A stretch of DNA of 64,000 nucleotides from a virus (taxonomy: Duplodnaviria; Heunggongvirae; Uroviricota; Caudoviricetes), in IMG/VR virus record IMGVR_UViG_3300050190_000017. The stretch is one strand, 5' to 3'. Below the pieces are notes generated by a model. That model saw nothing but the letters and a program-made list of their open reading frames with translations, did no database searches and was not told the DNA's origin. Within the stretch, counting starts at the first letter, position 1. Each line of letters begins with the position of its first letter. Of the stretch, positions 34,569 through 52,020 are shown piece by piece. Position numbers and translations under genes: made by a program.

Positions 34569-34610
34569 AGGGCACGTATTCTTAGCGGAATACGTGCCCT
34601 CTTTTGCGTT
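34569..34610 (+). terminator. rho-independent terminator
   Basis: 13-bp stem AGGGCACGTATTC/GAATACGTGCCCT, loop TTAGCG, then CTTTTGCGTT. Confidence 0.75.
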
Positions 34611-34656
34611 ACGCCCGCAATTTCATTCTAAACATCGCTTCTTTAGGAACAATAGA

Positions 34657-36318
34657 ATGGACCAAACATTAATCACAGCCTCAGAGCTTCTGAACCTCCT
34701 CCAACCTCTTTTTGTTTTAATTGTTGACTACGTTAGCAACGGGCCGGAGAGCAAACCGGACAAGGAAACTGCCCAAGAACTAAAAAGCATTCCTAAAGCA
34801 ATCATCGCTAAGTGGGGAAAGCAACTTCCTTCCCTCCTTCCGTCCATCCAGGCAGCCCTTGCCGGCACGGGTAAAGCAGAACAGTTGGTACTCCTTGGTA
34901 CTGAGATCAAGGAGATGTTCGAGACGTATCGTGCGGAGAAGTCATTCACCTCTCAGGAGATCGACGTACTGAAAGCCCTCGGCCTGTACCTCCGTACCGA
35001 TAGTGAAGCCGCGCTCTCCAAGATTCAGAAGATGGCAGGTATAGTTCATAGTCCTTTCGTTAGCTCTCGGTTTGCTCCCAAACAAGGTCAACAGAAGAGT
35101 GACACGCTCCGCAAGCTAGTGTTCGAGATGGTCGGCCGTGACGACACCGCACTTACTATAGATGAAGCCAAACAGGTTAAGGAAACTCACCCAGAAGAGT
35201 ACGCACAGTACCAAGCATACCGCAAGGAGCACAACCAGGTGTGGAAGGATGCCGTAGTATCCTATGTGCGTAAATCCGGACATGACACAGTTCCCTACGA
35301 GGAGCTCTTGGCCTACCTACACGCCAATGGTATTGAGCACATGCTTCCTGTTGGATTCACAGGCGAGGTTGACGACCTGGGTAGGCTATACACCAACACT
35401 GGTAAGATGATCGACGGTGTCCCCTCGGCTATTATGTTCCCTACCATGATAATGAACAAGCAGTTCGGGAAAGAGGGTGGTAAGGATTTTGTGTTTCAGG
35501 CTATACGTAGCGATGGCGGCCCTGGTCCCTACTTCTACACTTCGGAGTACAAGAAGGAAGCAGCTAAGGCAAAGTTCCAGCACGTCGCTGACCTCGCACC
35601 CAAGATCTTGTCGATGCAGAAAGCCTGGTTCTCCAAGGTTAAACAATTCAAGATTACTGATGCTGAATGTGTAGCCGCCACCATCTTAGAGATCCTGTAT
35701 GAGTTTGCAGCCCGTGTTGGTACTCCAGGTGAAGCGACGTTCGGTGTATCCACCCTGCTGGTAAAACATATGGCTGTAGACCATGCTTCAGGTAACATCA
35801 CTATTCGCTACCTTGGTAAGGACTCCATCAAGACCGTGCATAAGTTGGTAGCGTCTGATCCTACACAGAAGTTTGTTATCAAAGCCTTACTCCAACTGTT
35901 AGCGGGCAAGCAGCCTAAGGACCGAGTGTTCACCGTGGACAAAAGCGCTCGTAAAGTCCCGGTTAATGCCAAGGACGCTAACGCTTACTTCAAAGAGCTA
36001 GGTGCCCCTGCAGGAACAACTGTGCACAAGCTTCGGACCCTGCGAGGTACTCATCTGTTCTCTGAGCTTATGGAGAAGGCTATGGAGAAGCCTCCCAAGG
36101 ACGAGCGTGCTGCACTCGCTATGCTAACGAAGATGGGCGAGCAGGTCGGTAAGTTGCTAAACCATATTAGAACAATGGCTAGCGGTGGAACTAAAGTCAC
36201 GGGCACAACAGCACTAGCCAACTACGTGGACCCAAGCATACAGATCATGTTCTTCCGGCAGTTAGGCTTTCGCATTCCTCGCTTCCTTGAAAAACACGAC
36301 ACAGAGGTGAAGGATTAA
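34657..36318 (+). CDS. type IB DNA topoisomerase-like protein with N-terminal extension
   Basis: ITIRYLGKDSIKTVHKL follows the F.F.GK....H pattern. KLRTLRGTH and ALANYVDPSI resemble the active-site tyrosine motif SKxNYLDPRI of TopIB. The ATG at 34657 has an AGGAAC SD; the track's upstream GTG lies in the terminator stem. Confidence 0.5.
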   Translation: MDQTLITASELLNLLQPLFVLIVDYVSNGPESKPDKETAQELKSIPKAIIAKWGKQLPSLLPSIQAALAGTGKAEQLVLLGTEIKEMFETYRAEKSFTSQEIDVLKALGLYLRTDSEAALSKIQKMAGIVHSPFVSSRFAPKQGQQKSDTLRKLVFEMVGRDDTALTIDEAKQVKETHPEEYAQYQAYRKEHNQVWKDAVVSYVRKSGHDTVPYEELLAYLHANGIEHMLPVGFTGEVDDLGRLYTNTGKMIDGVPSAIMFPTMIMNKQFGKEGGKDFVFQAIRSDGGPGPYFYTSEYKKEAAKAKFQHVADLAPKILSMQKAWFSKVKQFKITDAECVAATILEILYEFAARVGTPGEATFGVSTLLVKHMAVDHASGNITIRYLGKDSIKTVHKLVASDPTQKFVIKALLQLLAGKQPKDRVFTVDKSARKVPVNAKDANAYFKELGAPAGTTVHKLRTLRGTHLFSELMEKAMEKPPKDERAALAMLTKMGEQVGKLLNHIRTMASGGTKVTGTTALANYVDPSIQIMFFRQLGFRIPRFLEKHDTEVKD

Positions 36319-43709: not shown

Positions 43710-45107
43710 ATGGTCAAGACTAATGCAGCCGCTCGCCTCCGCGCTTCCTCGGGTATTACTGCCACGAAGAAGTCAGCAACAGCTAAGAACAAAACAGTAG
43801 CCCGAACTCGTGTCCACGCGATCGAACTACCGAAGTTTCGTTACATCGATGACGTCACTCGCTTCCTAGATACTATGAAGGAAGAGATCGACGAGAACGA
43901 GAAGGTTATTAAGGTACACCAAACTCAGTTGGCCTTCCTAAAGAAGCCAAAGGAGTGGGTTGGTGCTACTCTAGTTAAGGCTGCTGAGATGGAACTCACC
44001 ATCAAAGAAGGTGAAGGTGGGTCAAATAAATCACGACTCAAGCGTAAGATTGATCCAGAACTTACTAAGGTGGTGGTCCCTAACGTTAAGAAGCTGGAAG
44101 AGCAGTACTCTCTCTCTGAGGACCTATACGAGAAACATCGTACCCTAGAAGCAGTGGAAGCTCAACTCTCTATGCAGTTCCCGGATCGTCGTGGTGAAGC
44201 GTATACAGCTACTATAGCTGCACTCCATGAGTTGAAAGGTAAGGTTGCTAAGCAGTTGAAAACGGTCTTAGGCTTCCTAAATGAAGTGGCAGCCAAGCAT
44301 GTGCCGAAGACCTTCGAGAAGTACATCGACGTTATTCGTCAGGAAGTGCAAGAGCACGTTATGTTTGAGGACTCCAATCTGTTCCTCTACGTATCGACTT
44401 CTGCTGAAGGCCAGATCGTTTTCACCTACTACCTGATGCTGATTAACGCTACTAACGATGAAGGTAAGGTAACGCCTAGCCTGTACATCTCAGTGCAATG
44501 GGTTGTTGGTGAGTCTACTACGATTCAGATTAACCCAGAGTACGAACTCCCGGGTCAACTGCTGAAAGAGGGAGGTGAATCGGTTGGCTCAGCAGGCGAG
44601 GCAGTTAAAGCTATCTCTGATCTCTTAGCTCTAGAAGACTTCAGCTCCTCGCTCGGTACTGTGCCGTTGTCCACGCAACTGCGGAAACCCCTGAACGAGT
44701 TGAAGCCAGAGATGTTTAGCTACAAGGATTTCATTCAGAAGCTGGATGTAGATGAAGATAAGCTAGTGTTCAAGCTGCGTAAAGGTGTTGAGCCTGAGCA
44801 AGCCAAGGAAGTTGCGTATGCCCTGTACCAGGAAGTAAAGGGGTTGTTTAAGAGCTCACGCACTGCTAAGATTCGAATGAAGCCCTCTAGCACGCAAATT
44901 GAATTCACAGTGACCAACGTAGCGAAGGGTAGAGAGGTCTCAGTGCACGATGCTGAATTCCTAGGCCAGAAGTTTGGATTAAATAACGCCCAACTCCGAA
45001 AAGTTCTTTTGATTCTGAACAGTGGCATCGGAGAAGAAAGTAAGCCTTCCGAAGCTCCTGAAACCAAAGCTGAGCAGCCGACAGGTAAAGAGAAGCTGTG
45101 GCTCTAG
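43710..45107 (+). CDS. KLNAAxRLLA-tagged hypothetical protein (465 aa)
   Basis: MVKTNAAARLRASS; AAGGAATAATAATG. Confidence 0.6.
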   Translation: MVKTNAAARLRASSGITATKKSATAKNKTVARTRVHAIELPKFRYIDDVTRFLDTMKEEIDENEKVIKVHQTQLAFLKKPKEWVGATLVKAAEMELTIKEGEGGSNKSRLKRKIDPELTKVVVPNVKKLEEQYSLSEDLYEKHRTLEAVEAQLSMQFPDRRGEAYTATIAALHELKGKVAKQLKTVLGFLNEVAAKHVPKTFEKYIDVIRQEVQEHVMFEDSNLFLYVSTSAEGQIVFTYYLMLINATNDEGKVTPSLYISVQWVVGESTTIQINPEYELPGQLLKEGGESVGSAGEAVKAISDLLALEDFSSSLGTVPLSTQLRKPLNELKPEMFSYKDFIQKLDVDEDKLVFKLRKGVEPEQAKEVAYALYQEVKGLFKSSRTAKIRMKPSSTQIEFTVTNVAKGREVSVHDAEFLGQKFGLNNAQLRKVLLILNSGIGEESKPSEAPETKAEQPTGKEKLWL

Positions 45108-45148
45108 CATGATACTTAGCAGCATTGAAAACTTACTAAGGATTCCCT

Positions 45149-45418
45149 ATGTTTAAACTCAATGCTGCTTCTCGATTACTTTCTATGTACGAGGTCCACG
45201 CTGACCCTTTTGAAGGCTGGATCAACAGCCTCCAGTTCACCTACGATCGCCCAGAGGGTGCTAACTATGTCACGGTAGACGCCACACTCTCTGAGGTAGT
45301 CTCCAAGTTGAAAAGCGATGGGTGGACGTCAACAGGCTCCGGTGAGTTTAGTAAAGGTGAGCACAAGTGCCACGTAGCCAAAGAGGGTAACAAGGCTCGC
45401 ATAACCGACCGAGGCTAA
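45149..45418 (+). CDS. KLNAAxRLLA-tagged hypothetical protein (89 aa)
   Basis: MFKLNAASRLLSMY. Confidence 0.55.
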   Translation: MFKLNAASRLLSMYEVHADPFEGWINSLQFTYDRPEGANYVTVDATLSEVVSKLKSDGWTSTGSGEFSKGEHKCHVAKEGNKARITDRG

Positions 45419-45424
45419 CGCATA

Positions 45425-45763
45425 GTGGCTAACACTAGAGAGATTAATATGAAAGCTGCACACCGACTAGTAGCGTCCCTTATAGAGGAGCAAGCCATGT
45501 TGAGTACCCACCTGATTGAACTACTAGCGAACTATGGTATCGAAGCGGAGTCACCAGATGACGCAAATAATTCCCTGCTAGTGTACGAGGAAAGCCCCCG
45601 TATCGTCATGGCCTTGGCGTTAGCTCGATGGATCTCAGATGAACCTCGGCAGGTCAACGGTGGTATGTACTGTGCGGGCACTACAGTTCAATTGAAACAG
45701 AAGGGACAGACTATCCGCCTACTGACGACAGCGCCAGGAAGGTCTGTACTATGGCTAATATGA
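45425..45763 (+). CDS. partially tagged hypothetical protein (112 aa; MKAAHRLVASL starts at the second Met, 45449)
   Basis: ORF track; true start at 45425 or 45449. Confidence 0.5.
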   Translation: MANTREINMKAAHRLVASLIEEQAMLSTHLIELLANYGIEAESPDDANNSLLVYEESPRIVMALALARWISDEPRQVNGGMYCAGTTVQLKQKGQTIRLLTTAPGRSVLWLI

Positions 45764-46473
45764 AAGAGACAAAAGCAATGCACGCACCTAGGCACAGAAC
45801 AGGTGAGACTGCCCCAATAGCAGATGGGGAACTATCAATTGGCGATCCTGACATCTGGGGTAACGGCATTAACAACACGTTAGTTCAGCCATCTATAGGA
45901 GTATCAGGCGTCAAGCTGAACGCCGCACACAGGCTGTTAGCTGCAGCTGAACCCCTCCCTGAATGGGTTTCACATACTATACAGCAGTGGATAAGTGGCG
46001 GTTCTGGTAGATTCACCTCCGCGCAAATGCAGGATGCCCTAAAAGCTTTCCACGTCGTTAGAGAAAGCTACCGTAGTACACTACCGAAGGTAGTGTATCG
46101 AGGGTTGCTTATCCCTGAGACCGCGCTGACAAAGATCCTAAACGGCAAGCCGTTGAAAGTAGAGCCCGCTGTTCTTTCATCCTGGACCTCAGATCCTAAA
46201 GTTGCATTGAAGTACGCCAACGTCACCTGGGATACACCTTTAGAACAGATCGGAATTATATTAGCTATTCATACGCCACCGTCAGCTCTGTTCTATATAG
46301 ATAAAAAGTTCATACGTACTGTCCTGGATGATCCATTTTCCCACGATCAGAAAGAGGTAGTGGTTCAGGGGCCAGGTGTGTCCCACGTTAGCAGAGACAA
46401 CATACTAGCCGTAGTCTCAGAGACTAATACCCCTCTTAAGGTTTCAGAGTACCTGAAGGGAATTGAAAAATGA
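45751..46473 (+). CDS. Alt/C3-like mono-ADP-ribosyltransferase (R-S-E class) with internal KLNAAHRLLA tag
   Basis: VVYRGLL (Arg), LSSWTSD (STS-like) and DQKEVVVQGPG (QxE plus hydrophobic strand) in canonical order and spacing. The tag begins at about residue 56. Confidence 0.65.
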   Translation: MANMKETKAMHAPRHRTGETAPIADGELSIGDPDIWGNGINNTLVQPSIGVSGVKLNAAHRLLAAAEPLPEWVSHTIQQWISGGSGRFTSAQMQDALKAFHVVRESYRSTLPKVVYRGLLIPETALTKILNGKPLKVEPAVLSSWTSDPKVALKYANVTWDTPLEQIGIILAIHTPPSALFYIDKKFIRTVLDDPFSHDQKEVVVQGPGVSHVSRDNILAVVSETNTPLKVSEYLKGIEK

Positions 46474-46574
46474 ACAACACATTTGTCTACTTCGCACAGC
46501 CAACAGAAAACACATTAGTAGCTCCGAACCTAACGCCTATGCTTGCTCCAGGTGAAACGACATGCAATTAAATG
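46473..46574 (+). pseudogene. truncated duplicate of the 5' end of gene 47092 (33 codons), running into the start of 46562
   Basis: Nucleotides 46473-46560 are about 85% identical to 47092-47180. Both encode MNNTFVYFAQPTENTLVAPNLT(S/P)MLAPGET. Confidence 0.6.
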
Positions 46575-47095
46575 CAGCCTCTAGGCTCGTAGAGTCTATG
46601 CCTATTAGGATGCGAGAGAACTACACTCAACTAGAATTTGATCGAGACGTAGAGTTTCTTGAAAAACGATTGAAAACTAAGCCTGCTGTACCACTTGGCA
46701 CAAAAGAAGGTTTGTCCTTATACTACCTGAAGTTGACTTATTCTCGTGACTTTTTCTTAAAAGATAGAGATAGAATAATTGGAATATTGTCTACGACGGC
46801 CAAAGGCAACATGGTTATCAGTGTTTTTATCGAAGAAGAATACAGGGGACGACATTTAGGTCTTGTACTATATCTAGCAGCTATTCATGTTCTAGGTGAA
46901 CTTCAAAGTTCAAGCATTATAGGTATAATGGCAGTTAGAACCTGGAGATCCGTATCTAAGTACTATTCAGTGGAACTACTAGATCATCTTCAGGTACCTG
47001 TGGATTTCTCTTGGGGTACCGATACAATACCTATTGTAAAAGGTAAACCTATAAATAAACTTAGAGGGAATTTTTACTTTAAGGTGAAAGCATGA
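46562..47095 (+). CDS. KLNAAxRLLA-tagged GNAT-family acetyltransferase
   Basis: MQLNAASRLVES, then the GNAT motif-A-like VFIEEEYRGRHLGLVLYLAAIHVL. Confidence 0.55.
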   Translation: MQLNAASRLVESMPIRMRENYTQLEFDRDVEFLEKRLKTKPAVPLGTKEGLSLYYLKLTYSRDFFLKDRDRIIGILSTTAKGNMVISVFIEEEYRGRHLGLVLYLAAIHVLGELQSSSIIGIMAVRTWRSVSKYYSVELLDHLQVPVDFSWGTDTIPIVKGKPINKLRGNFYFKVKA

Positions 47096-48618
47096 ACAAT
47101 ACATTCGTCTATTTTGCACAGCCCACAGAGAATACATTAGTCGCACCAAACCTAACGTCTATGCTTGCTCCAGGTGAAACGATCACCAGCATAGTATTGA
47201 CTGCGGTAACACCGACTACTGCTCCACCGCTCACAGCAGTCTTGCAGTCAGGTGCTAATCCTGTAACGCAGATCCTGTTATCCGGTGGTATTGCTGGTAC
47301 TGCTTACGGCTTCCAGATTCTGGCTACTACTAATGCTCGGGTGCTCACAGCTCAGGTAGCAGTCACAGTTCAGGATGAATTATTTGTACCGTACGCCACA
47401 CAGAATCCGCAGGCGTTCACCGACCTGGTTGATGAAATCCAAGCAGGCATGGCAGCAATTGGTACTGCTATCTTTAGCTTCCCTGCTACTATTGACCCAC
47501 GTGGAGGCTTTGTAACCTGGGAACTCTTAGCCTCAGACGGCACAGTGTACGCAGCAGGTAACGCCTACAACTATTTGGTACAGTCGAACGGTTTGGCTAA
47601 CACAGTCCTAGCTAACGCAGTTATCACAGTGCCCTCTACAGTACCACCTAGCTTAGATAACCAACGGTATCAACTTCGATATACGTTAGAACTCCCGCAG
47701 GTACAGAACCTGCAAAATGATCCACTGCAAGGTCAGGTATCGCAGAATGCTTTCTTCTCCTACGAGAACATCCGTGTAGTAGGGTTGAATACGGTACCTT
47801 TGGGCACGCAGTCTACAGTTGAACTGCAAGGCAGCCCTGCTAACCTATCGATTGTACTAGATCAGCTGTACGATAACGTCACCGTCGAATTGTGGGCTGG
47901 CGGTGTACAGGTAGCAGCCCCGTCCCTTATTGGTAACTCAGAACGTACTGCTAATGGTTGGTACTACGCAGGGGTCATCGACACCCAGCAGTTGATGGTA
48001 TCCCTTGTCCCCTACACTGTGATCTGGAAGTATTGGTATTCGTCACAAGCCTCGCTCGTCTACCAGGAATCAGCAGACCTGTTCGTTATCAATGCATCTA
48101 TGATGACAGCTATTACTGATGTACGGTCGAAGATCAACAAGGCGAACACTACGCTGTATGGTACTCCTGACATGCTGTACCCTAACCAAACGATCATGAC
48201 TTGGTTGCGTCGGGGTGCGGATGCTTTCAACGGTGCGTACGGGGTATTCACCAACTTCAGCTTCACCAATGCCTTAGGGGTCATCCGTGAATACTGGTTG
48301 ATGCACGCTGAGATGTTTGCTCTGGAATCGCAGGTAACGGCAGAAGCAGAGAAGGCATTCCAGTTCCAGGGTGCTGCTATTACCTTGGACATTGATCGTA
48401 CAGCAGGGTTCGATGCTGCTATCTCTAAGATTCAGTCGAGGTTGGACAATGAGCTGAAGGCGTTGAAGCAGAACTTGGTAATGCGTGGGGTGATGGGGGG
48501 CGATGGCTCCACCGATCCGACTATGCTACAGCACGGCGCTATCGGTGCAGTGGGTATTACGATCTCTCCTGTTACCATGTGGGGTAGATACGGCAGAGGC
48601 TACGGTCAGCTATTCTGA
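47092..48618 (+). CDS. hypothetical protein (508 aa), possibly virion-associated
   Basis: ORF track. Its 5' end is duplicated upstream of the inserted GNAT gene. Confidence 0.6.
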   Translation: MNNTFVYFAQPTENTLVAPNLTSMLAPGETITSIVLTAVTPTTAPPLTAVLQSGANPVTQILLSGGIAGTAYGFQILATTNARVLTAQVAVTVQDELFVPYATQNPQAFTDLVDEIQAGMAAIGTAIFSFPATIDPRGGFVTWELLASDGTVYAAGNAYNYLVQSNGLANTVLANAVITVPSTVPPSLDNQRYQLRYTLELPQVQNLQNDPLQGQVSQNAFFSYENIRVVGLNTVPLGTQSTVELQGSPANLSIVLDQLYDNVTVELWAGGVQVAAPSLIGNSERTANGWYYAGVIDTQQLMVSLVPYTVIWKYWYSSQASLVYQESADLFVINASMMTAITDVRSKINKANTTLYGTPDMLYPNQTIMTWLRRGADAFNGAYGVFTNFSFTNALGVIREYWLMHAEMFALESQVTAEAEKAFQFQGAAITLDIDRTAGFDAAISKIQSRLDNELKALKQNLVMRGVMGGDGSTDPTMLQHGAIGAVGITISPVTMWGRYGRGYGQLF

Positions 48619-48622
48619 TTAT

Positions 48623-48630
48623 TGTAAATA
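48623..48630 (+). promoter_or_regulatory. TGTAAATA box
   Basis: Upstream of the holin-like gene. Confidence 0.4.
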
Positions 48631-48673
48631 TAGCATATAGCCCCATTGAGATTCAAAAAGAAAGGAGGCTGTC

Positions 48674-49072
48674 ATGGCCGATCTCGCAACGGCACTACAA
48701 CAACTATTAGCCGCGCTGGTAAACAATACTCTGGCCACCTTACTCCTGGTAATTATAGCAGCAGGTGTAGGCGTGCTGATCTACGCGCAGTACAAGAAAG
48801 ACAACTTCGACCTTCGGGCACTGATAGTTGACCCGGTAACTAAACAACCATCTATCCATCAGCTAGGGCAATTCACCGCTCTGGTAATCTCCTCGTGGGG
48901 ACTAATCGTGTTGGTGCTGCACGATAAACTAACCGAAGCCTACTTCAGCATCTACATGGCAGTATGGGCAGGTGCTAACACACTGGACCGATTCCTAACC
49001 ATTCGGGACGAGAACGGTAAGCATAATGACGGCGGCGGAGATCGAGATGGAGGTGATGATACTCCGCACTAA
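48674..49072 (+). CDS. holin-like small membrane protein (2-3 TM, charged C-terminus)
   Basis: AAGGAGGCTGTCATG SD. TM segments LATLLLVIIAAGVGVLIY and FTALVISSWGLIVLVL, then a charged Gly/Asp tail. Confidence 0.45.
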   Translation: MADLATALQQLLAALVNNTLATLLLVIIAAGVGVLIYAQYKKDNFDLRALIVDPVTKQPSIHQLGQFTALVISSWGLIVLVLHDKLTEAYFSIYMAVWAGANTLDRFLTIRDENGKHNDGGGDRDGGDDTPH

Positions 49073-50236: not shown

Positions 50237-50554
50237 ATGTGGGCACGTCGGACAAGACCAGCTAAGAGAAACGCGTTCGGCGTGGCTACTATTAGGCGAG
50301 ACTCGTACAATACCCAGAGCGGTATGTCGGTAAAAGCGGGCTGGTGGGAAATTAGTGCTGCAGTCCGTAAGCGATCTGGAGGAAAGTGCGAGGCGCGTAT
50401 TAATGGTGTGCGGTGTAACGCTCCCGCTAAGGACTGCCACCACATAGTACCGCTCTCAAAGGGTGGTGCGAACCTAATAAGTAACCTCCTACACATTTGT
50501 GAGGACTGCCATAATCGACGCCATACTCACCTAATGCGAGCCCGAGGTAAATAA
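50237..50554 (+). CDS. HNH endonuclease
   Basis: CEARINGVRCNAPAKDCHHIVPLSKGGANLISNLLHICEDCHNRRH. Confidence 0.7.
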   Translation: MWARRTRPAKRNAFGVATIRRDSYNTQSGMSVKAGWWEISAAVRKRSGGKCEARINGVRCNAPAKDCHHIVPLSKGGANLISNLLHICEDCHNRRHTHLMRARGK

Positions 50555-50824: not shown

Positions 50825-51295
50825 ATGGAAAATGAACAGCAACTCCAAGAGCTTATAGCTCTGTTTCTTAAAGTTAATCCCGATCCATCTGATGATCAAT
50901 TCCATGCACTAGCGGGCGCCTGCGGAGTAGATCATGCTACGCTCGAAGCAATCAGCTACTCCATGCTTGCTGAGTCAGAAGAAGTGCTGGCCGATGCAGA
51001 AGTAGACGTAGAAAGTATCGGTGGCGGGCAAGGTGATGTAGGTCTCAGCGATGCCCAACAAGTACTGGACGGTGACTATGATCCTAACGTTACTCAAACT
51101 GATGACCTGCTGCTTAATGACGGAGCTCCTGCTTCTGATACATCAACTCAACGTCTGCAGGACACGACGTTGAACGACGGAGTGAGTGTCGGTGATACAG
51201 GTTCGGGTATTGCTAGTCAGGAGATGCTGTATAGCGATGGATTAGCTCCTCTGAAGTTGGGTGCATCAGCTCGTTTGCTTGCCACTGCTAAGTAA
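50825..51295 (+). CDS. acidic protein ending in a C-terminal tag-like LKLGASARLLATAK
   Basis: ORF track; tag-like motif at the C-terminus. Confidence 0.55.
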   Translation: MENEQQLQELIALFLKVNPDPSDDQFHALAGACGVDHATLEAISYSMLAESEEVLADAEVDVESIGGGQGDVGLSDAQQVLDGDYDPNVTQTDDLLLNDGAPASDTSTQRLQDTTLNDGVSVGDTGSGIASQEMLYSDGLAPLKLGASARLLATAK

Positions 51296-51297
51296 TC

Positions 51298-52020
51298 ATG
51301 GCTACTACCGATACGCCCTTCCTCAGCAACTTGGGCGTCCCTCCTCTTGTACAGGCGAGGAACCCCACTCCTGAAACATTTCCATCTGCGCTTAACCTGA
51401 ATAACAAGAGTGTATGGGGCACCGCTGTTGCAGAAACTCCACCGACTGCTAGTGTGCCTGAGACGTGGGCATTGTGCTTGAAGCGTTACGTTGAGTTGTG
51501 CGAAATCCAAGACCTCTTTCCCTTCCAGACACTCCACCAGTCTCGTAACGATCAGATCTCGGACTTCTTGAAGGAAGCTCGAATGATGGTTGTGAAGTAC
51601 ATCAATCGATCTGGTCTGTTCGATGAAGTGAAGTTGACCAAGAGCCACCGCTCAGTGCATGTAACGCACGATGGATTCAATATCGTAGTGTACGCCAAGG
51701 CTACGATCACTGATCCCTCGTTCGAGCAGTGGTTGCAGAAAATGCCGTATCCCCACTTCAACAGCGTTCGTCGCCCAGACGGTAAGTGGGTTAAGCCCCT
51801 CGGCAACGGCGTCACTATGTTTGTTATCAACGGTGAGCACGGCGGCTACTCACCTACACGCTGGCACATCGGATATGAGATCGAATGCTCAATGTTCCCT
51901 GATGTTCCGACGTCCGGTACACCCTCACAAGCAGAGTTGGAGAAGTTTGTTTTGGACGTACTTTGGATGCCAGTACTTCGCACCCACCGCCCTTTGAAAG
52001 TATTACATCGTTTGATTTAA
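51298..52020 (+). CDS. hypothetical protein (240 aa)
   Basis: ORF track. Confidence 0.55.
   Translation: MATTDTPFLSNLGVPPLVQARNPTPETFPSALNLNNKSVWGTAVAETPPTASVPETWALCLKRYVELCEIQDLFPFQTLHQSRNDQISDFLKEARMMVVKYINRSGLFDEVKLTKSHRSVHVTHDGFNIVVYAKATITDPSFEQWLQKMPYPHFNSVRRPDGKWVKPLGNGVTMFVINGEHGGYSPTRWHIGYEIECSMFPDVPTSGTPSQAELEKFVLDVLWMPVLRTHRPLKVLHRLI

Follow-up and report, generated by a model that had tools for sequence, protein, structure and literature searches.

Tailed bacteriophages are known to gain and exchange genes by illegitimate recombination, both in mosaicism of the kind described by Hendrix and in the accretion of 'moron' genes (PMC2839356). In T4-type phages, diverse packaged proteins have only a capsid targeting sequence (CTS) in common (PMC3012670), and the modules of the hyperplastic regions are shuffled by way of short conserved motifs, as in the promoter/stem-loop (PeSL) cassettes (PMC2839356, PMC4122927). 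The locus considered here lies in the IMG/VR record IMGVR_UViG_3300050190_000017, a stretch of 64,000 nucleotides (hereafter the window) from a jumbo phage that, by protein homology, is of the RSL1 / BcepSaruman / BcepSauron / Motura kind. At this locus a 91-nt copy of the start of a head-tail connector gene separates two unrelated cargo genes, one encoding a domain termed X and the other a GNAT-like acetyltransferase, each of which carries a short peptide, the tag, that recurs in many genes of the window; the intact connector gene follows the GNAT gene. The 91-nt segment is probably a recombination scar, left when two related jumbo-phage genomes with different cargo at the same slot underwent one unequal, non-homologous crossover.

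Apart from its unusually good preservation, the feature is a mosaic junction of a kind that is ordinary in phages, and it calls for no new mechanism. Like junctions of the Hendrix type, it combines an abrupt non-homologous joint at or near gene boundaries with a partial gene remnant and a gene added to a collinear block, and its survival depends on intact expression signals. It is unlike a moron in that the GNAT gene has no promoter or terminator of its own, the joint falls inside two coding regions and the remnant appears to supply the ribosome-binding site, and it is a rare example among mosaic joints in that both parental arrangements are still recognizable in relatives. The scar is also young enough to show how such a joint is made and survives, with a start codon, ribosome-binding site and translational coupling that were apparently improvised from coding sequence. 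The internal-protein loci of T4 offer a second likeness: unrelated, fast-turnover genes share one short N-terminal peptide, their content differs among close relatives, and breakpoints coincide with the shared motif, which in the window means where the GNAT tag begins. Unlike the T4 situation, the window tag, (K/Q)LNAAxRL(L/V)A, has no resemblance to the CTS when judged by eye, there is no promoter/stem-loop cassette of PeSL type, and the junction does not link motif to motif but lacks homology on its connector side.

The repeated connector start

The features of the locus are as follows.

45751–46473, + strand: gene of 240 aa consisting of a leader, the tag and cargo domain X (from the list of open reading frames; a Pfam search of the protein gave no match)
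46470–46560, + strand: upstream, truncated copy of the connector gene 5′ end, comprising its first 91 nt (30 codons plus 1 nt), 88% identical to 47092–47182
46470–46571, + strand: open reading frame of 33 codons (ORF33), made up of 30 connector codons and Thr-Cys-Asn-stop (from the list of open reading frames; also called as a gene in a Logan contig)
46550–46555, + strand: Shine-Dalgarno-like hexamer AGGTGA, read from the sequence, 6 nt 5′ of the GNAT ATG; function putative
46560–46561: apparent illegitimate junction, at which the last repeat base (46560) abuts C-ATG-CAA-TTA, belonging to the GNAT gene
46562–47095, + strand: GNAT-like acetyltransferase gene, 177 aa (Pfam and homologues)
47092–47182, + strand: downstream repeat copy, the true 5′ end of the intact connector gene (repeat alignment)
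47092–48618, + strand: intact virion gene of 508 aa, a head-tail connector by homology (PHROG, Pfam and homologues)

The two copies form a direct repeat of 91 nt (46470–46560 and 47092–47182) that aligns without gaps and is identical at 80 of 91 positions. Within the 64-kb window it is recovered by blastn with E 2.7e-28 and, as peptide, by tblastn with 29 of 30 residues identical (E 2e-16), and it is the sole substantial repeat in a self-comparison of 45000–49000. Both copies encode MNNTFVYFAQPTENTLVAPNLT(P/S)MLAPGET, with P in the upstream and S in the downstream copy. Similarity ends abruptly after 46560/47182, beyond which the sequences are unrelated. The initial annotation had noticed this repeat and had read the upstream copy as a cut-short beginning of gene 47092 fused to the tagged GNAT gene at its start, and hence as the footprint of a rearrangement. 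That description is borne out, and the similarity is neither below about 60% nor shorter than was claimed; the start given then (46473) is 3 nt late, and the identity of about 85% slightly low.

Neighboring reading frames overlap throughout. The ATG of ORF33 overlaps the TGA of the X gene (ATGA), its TAA (46569–46571) lies 5 nt beyond the ATG codon of the GNAT gene (46562–46564), and the TGA of the GNAT gene overlaps the ATG of the 508-aa gene. The GNAT ATG itself is located 1 nt beyond the end of the repeat and has no intergenic DNA of its own. The AGGTGA hexamer that precedes it is built from connector codons for Pro-Gly-Glu (CCA-GGT-GAA), and an identical hexamer also stands 5′ of the ATG of the 508-aa gene (AAGGTGAAAGCATG at 47080–47094). 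Given the ATGA overlap, ORF33 is probably translated by coupling to gene X. The leader of the X gene comprises about residues 1–54 (..NNTLVQPSIGVSG) and is followed by the tag KLNAAHRLLAAA (DNA from 45916), whereas the GNAT gene begins directly with its tag, MQLNAASRLVES, without the leader seen in its homologues.

The arrangement is genuine and not an artefact of assembly, because over 13.5 kb the window agrees at 100% with a Logan contig, SRR35930972_3418, that is reported for 3 samples, identical GNAT and 508-aa proteins are indexed on three contigs, and a JGI contig (L062), 99.8% identical, extends across the X gene and 49 nt into ORF33. Exact-protein look-ups with the GNAT, 508-aa, X and ORF33 proteins returned only L007, L063 and L064, which are 100% identical and represent the same genome, as well as L062, a strain fragment.

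The pattern of substitutions between the copies bears directly on their history. Among the 11 differences, 10 are synonymous changes at third positions and 1 is non-synonymous, with no indel; Nei-Gojobori proportions of synonymous (pS) and non-synonymous (pN) differences are 0.47 and 0.015, and the probability of at least 10 of 11 differences being synonymous under neutrality is 4.8e-6. The sole replacement, P23, is confined to the truncated copy, S23 being present in the intact gene and in all intact close relatives, namely L045 and the protein fragments P0005 and P0007, which conserve the 30 repeat residues well. This excess of synonymous differences indicates that the divergence accumulated under selection on the protein, and the two copies thus appear to have diverged as parts of intact orthologous genes rather than as a gene and its decaying duplicate. 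The last 24 nt of the repeat are identical in both copies. Gene conversion was considered as their source and rejected, since L045 has the same 24 nt; their identity instead reflects coding constraint on the connector.

The connector is annotated by homology. The 508-aa protein matches PHROG 17327 'head-tail connector' (E 7e-83), contains the Pfam PF23148 Gp77 fibre-tail adaptor domain at residues 20–91, and is 52–59% identical to BcepSaruman gp093, RSL1 ORF118 and Motura gp166, which carry the RefSeq annotation 'head-tail connector'. The 177-aa protein is best described as GNAT-like, its own match to Pfam Acetyltransf_1 being sub-threshold (E 0.0065; 17.2 bits, under the 20.7 cut-off). Acetyltransf_1 does match 4 of 5 aligned family members (best E 7.6e-7), and the top PDB matches of a profile of the family are acetyltransferases, but only at E 0.05–0.1. 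Motif A of GNAT proteins, (Q/R)-x-x-G-x-(G/A), binds acetyl-CoA; it reads R-G-H-G-L-G and R-N-K-G-L-G in homologues and R-G-R-H-L-G in the window protein, where His replaces the first Gly.

The slot upstream of the connector gene in related phages

The window was compared with about 35 distinct loci of relatives, each with a homologue of the 508-aa gene. In none of these does the connector 5′ end occur twice, so ORF33 is not a conserved independent gene; the initial annotation had allowed for relatives in which the 33-codon frame is conserved, and none was seen in this set. What does vary is the gene directly upstream of the connector, which in the nearer relatives consists of a leader of about 55–90 aa (..VVQPSIxVxG), a tag-like motif and a cargo domain. 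The leader of the window X gene can be aligned with those of the genes that immediately precede the 508-aa homologue in L004, L005, L006 and RSL1 (ORF117). At this position L005 and L004 have a leader-fused GNAT homologue, L006 has a different cargo domain, and L061 has a homologue of X. The contention of the initial annotation that the locus gains and loses tagged cargo is well founded, as the content of the slot in relatives ranges from one or two GNATs through a GNAT stub to X or other cargo.

The GNAT homologues L5_216 (49% identical), L4_236 (45%) and L4_196 (42%) all lie just upstream of the 508-aa homologue, and every GNAT homologue with readable genomic context immediately precedes a connector gene. 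Apart from the same genome and one fragment without readable context, the protein database contained none elsewhere, and tblastn of the GNAT protein against cultured phages gave no match; the corresponding search with X gave just two weak matches, to Pseudomonas phages. The GNAT fragment P0004, 68% identical, starts ..NTCVQGVKLGAAKRLLESMPIK, that is, with the leader end followed by the tag and GNAT, and shows the fusion only. An exact search of IMG/VR and GTDB genomes with the conserved 22-mer ATGCTTGCTCCAGGTGAAACGA produced no match.

The closest relative, L045 (Ga0137409_10173502), has a connector gene that is 92% identical in amino acids and 82% in nucleotides. Collinearity with the window extends to 45927 and resumes at 47089; between these parts L045 has only the end of a 74-aa open reading frame (762–986), which comprises leader, tag and LNAASRLVEALDIKNRD-RS-stop, lacks a cargo domain and is directly followed by the connector gene. 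This tail agrees with the first 17 codons of the window GNAT gene (LNAASRLVESMPIRMRE) at 11/17 aa and 33/51 nt, and with X at 7/17 aa and 20/51 nt, the latter in the tag region only. To judge from these matches, L045 apparently retains a leader-GNAT gene of which the body has been deleted while the leader reading frame stayed open.

In L061 the X homologue P0002 (54% identical) is directly upstream of the connector start, MAAPFVYFKEPGIDSEQIADITSMLLASETIT, which comes 1 nt past the P0002 stop (MAAPFVYFKEPG...). This contig (SRR29078194_124383) ends 97 nt into the connector homologue (1141–1237), near the window breakpoint at 91 nt. The nearness of the two positions could be coincidence, a matter of low coverage, or the result of a similar repeat or polymorphism in that population at which the assembly graph branched. 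Derivation of X from the gene that follows the connector in L004 and L005 was considered on the basis of a likeness seen by eye and was dropped, pairwise BLASTP giving E 0.007 and 0.065.

A tandem pair of GNAT paralogues was observed in L004 (5821–6531 and 6521–7111) upstream of the connector gene, the second of which keeps just the last ~12 leader residues (..SLSVQSSIRRL). The pair is another product of unequal exchange at the leader/tag boundary, without a connector fragment. In both cases, as in tandem amplification by unequal crossing-over, two cargo genes come to stand side by side through unequal exchange in the leader/tag region; the L004 pair has the same gene twice and no connector fragment, whereas in the window two unrelated cargo genes meet at a joint that is marked by such a fragment. 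The slot 5′ of the connector in RSL1-like jumbo phages thus turns over tagged enzyme cargo as genes are gained, duplicated in tandem and deleted, the breakpoints lying where leader and tag meet, and this turnover provides useful background for study of the roles of the tagged proteins.

Origin of the junction

The course of events that we favour begins with two parents of the RSL1 / BcepSaruman / Motura kind, one with the arrangement [leader-tag-X][connector] and the other with [leader-tag-GNAT][connector]. The first would have been broken 91 nt into its connector gene and the broken end joined to the second at the end of its leader, just before a two-residue spacer and the GNAT tag, to give [leader-tag-X][connector 5′ 91 nt][M-Q-tag-GNAT][connector], in which both cargo genes stand in tandem. 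A formerly internal Met codon of the leader-GNAT fusion would thereby have become the GNAT start codon, and the connector codons CCA-GGT-GAA would provide an AGGTGA ribosome-binding site with a 6-nt spacer. ORF33 would carry ribosomes from the X stop, by way of the ATGA overlap, to a stop just beyond the GNAT ATG and so couple translation of the two cargo genes. In the recombinant, GNAT would start directly with the (K/Q)LNAAxRL(L/V)A tag, as about a dozen other open reading frames of the window do. ORF33 is most likely a by-product that has no function as a peptide. The X gene with the connector fragment is equally likely to have been the incoming piece.

The flanking arrangements fit such a joint. 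The left side, X followed by the connector start, is collinear with L061, and the right side, (leader-)GNAT followed by the connector, with L004 and L005 and with the stub in L045. Before the Leu codon of LNAA stand the 7 nt CATGCAA; these agree with 'GG|C + two spacer codons', a layout likewise seen in L045 (GGC TTT ACG) and gene X (GGC GTC AAG), and they may represent the last base of a Gly codon and the two-residue spacer of the old leader. A leader-GNAT parent within the clade is predicted to read ..VQPSIGVSG-MQ-LNAASRLVESMPI... From such comparisons of sequence we infer the two-parent origin, an earlier leader-GNAT fusion in the lineage, and the Shine-Dalgarno and coupling roles of the connector codons. 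The breakpoint in the intact connector gene was also observed to lie within an inverted repeat, GGTGA-AACGA-TCACC (47172–47186; 5-bp stem), the direct repeat ending after AACGA; this position may be due to chance, or the inverted repeat could have promoted template switching.

In its synonymous distances to L045 the locus loosely resembles a left/right mosaic. The downstream copy differs from L045 at 14 positions and the upstream copy at 22; pS is 0.74 for the upstream copy, next to 0.70 and 0.78 for the left-flank genes, and 0.43 for the downstream copy, next to 0.59 for the rest of the connector gene, a contrast that rests on ~21 synonymous sites in the repeat and one close outgroup and is only suggestive.

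Several points weigh against a crossover between two parents, the small basis of this contrast among them. The pS of the leader against L045 is 0.48, unlike the left-flank pattern. Neither parental genome was found among the searched records; L061 ends 97 nt into the connector gene and so shows just the beginning of that gene, and its X is only 54% identical. The L045 tail resembles the GNAT start over a short stretch (17 codons, 65% of nucleotides), and a demonstration of microhomology at the junction would take the parental sequences. Duplication in place, with both peptides under selection, would also produce the same substitution pattern.

The initial annotation had proposed a different event, in which a genome of the arrangement [leader-X][connector] received a self-contained, tagged GNAT cassette, either beside gene 47092 or within it at a depth of 91 nt, about 90 bp of target being duplicated and the copies then diverging in place. 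The GNAT gene is indeed bracketed exactly by the two repeat copies, its N-terminal tag is like that of the stand-alone tagged genes of the window, the [X][connector] arrangement exists in L061, and GNAT is absent from cultured relatives in the tblastn search. A dead copy should, however, gather mostly non-synonymous changes and indels; the 12% divergence observed here is nearly all synonymous (10 to 1, no indel; P 4.8e-6) and fits two orthologous gene starts. A cassette would also be expected to bring signals of its own, but GNAT has neither an upstream region nor a ribosome-binding site that is not made of connector codons. The stretch 46562–47095 is the GNAT open reading frame only; inspection of the open reading frame list and Pfam found no transposase or homing endonuclease in the insert, and no mobility gene lies inside or adjoining it. 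We know of no mechanism that yields target duplications of 91 bp, which counts further against insertion. Nor does GNAT look like a newcomer, since its homologues with readable context were found only in this slot, where GNAT is the normal leader-fused neighbour of the connector in L004 and L005 and survives as a 17-codon stub in the nearest relative, L045. Cassette insertion is for these reasons considered unlikely.

There is a smaller chance that ORF33 is functional and kept by selection, whether as a small mimic of the connector N-terminus, as an upstream open reading frame for GNAT, or as part of a −1 frameshift fusion to GNAT. Such a role could draw on the signature of purifying selection between the copies, the intact start and stop overlaps with both neighbours, the identity of the last 24 nt in both copies and L045, and the presence of ORF33 in two slightly different strains. 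It is opposed by the absence of ORF33 from all ~35 distinct related loci. Its 30 residues, moreover, are less than half of a ~70-residue beta-domain (Gp77, residues 20–91) and unlikely to fold alone, and the 24 nt are equally conserved in the intact L045 orthologue, which points to connector coding constraint. The frameshift variant was rejected because the 13-nt permissible window (46556–46568) contains no X XXY YYZ slippery heptamer. Neither copy showed RNA structure above that of shuffled controls (z +1.4 and −0.5), and no promoter- or terminator-like sites were found above shuffled expectation. ORF33 may well have a coupling role, as a side effect of the scar.

GNAT lies between the 91-nt repeats, and X together with the scar between two tags; homologous exchange could therefore restore either single-cargo arrangement. 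A bolder proposal, to which we give a low probability, is that the scar belongs to a working device for shuffling cargo. The imperfect tag/tag and connector 5′ repeats, the latter with a 24-nt perfect core, would let the array resolve or extend. If this were true, the phage population would switch or stack injected effector enzymes at the slot, in a tag-anchored counterpart of T4 PeSL/CTS shuffling. In a weaker variant, the 33-aa connector N-terminal peptide may have an assembly role of its own.

Finally, a chimeric join of co-occurring X and GNAT strains during assembly is highly improbable: both arrangements do exist in nature and the data are metagenomic, but the presumed parents share no sequence at 46560/46561, where a graph assembler would need spanning reads, and the identical 13.5 kb of the independent Logan contig and the identical proteins on three contigs speak against it.

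The tag and neighbouring genes

At least 13 open reading frames of the window carry (K/Q)LNAAxRL(L/V)A, mostly at residues 2–12, at the following positions.

36321, 37349, 38281, 39337, 40756, 41389, 45149, 45425, 46562, 49303, 50554 and 58106: tag N-terminal
45916: tag internal
51257: tag C-terminal

The domains of the tagged proteins are unrelated and include NUDIX (41389), saccharopine-dehydrogenase-like (39337), T7 gp0.7-kinase-like (40756) and GNAT (46562) domains as well as many of unknown function. The motif also occurs in BcepSaruman, Motura and metagenomic relatives, and it is likely a packaging or processing tag, one that may direct proteins into the head as the T4 CTS does (PMC3012670) and may be processed by the prohead protease. 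No description of the tag in RSL1-like phages was found in the literature.

An open reading frame of 156 aa (50825–51295) ends with the tag (..LKLGASARLLATAK-stop), the next gene (51298–52020) starting 2 nt on, and BcepSaruman gp090 (L001 7045–7497) likewise ends ..ISAARRLMGQ-stop before gp089. A C-terminal tag directly before a downstream gene is thus conserved; a split leader and cargo, readthrough or a true C-terminal tag are possible explanations.

The HNH gene at 50237–50554, which the initial annotation had proposed to check for cutting near the junction, is syntenic in BcepSaruman (gp091) and RSL1 (ORF122) and is therefore a conserved resident gene, not a mobile homing endonuclease. Just upstream of the run of tagged genes, a 574-aa protein (34594–36318) matches the catalytic core of eukaryotic-type topoisomerase IB (Pfam PF01028, E 9e-20).

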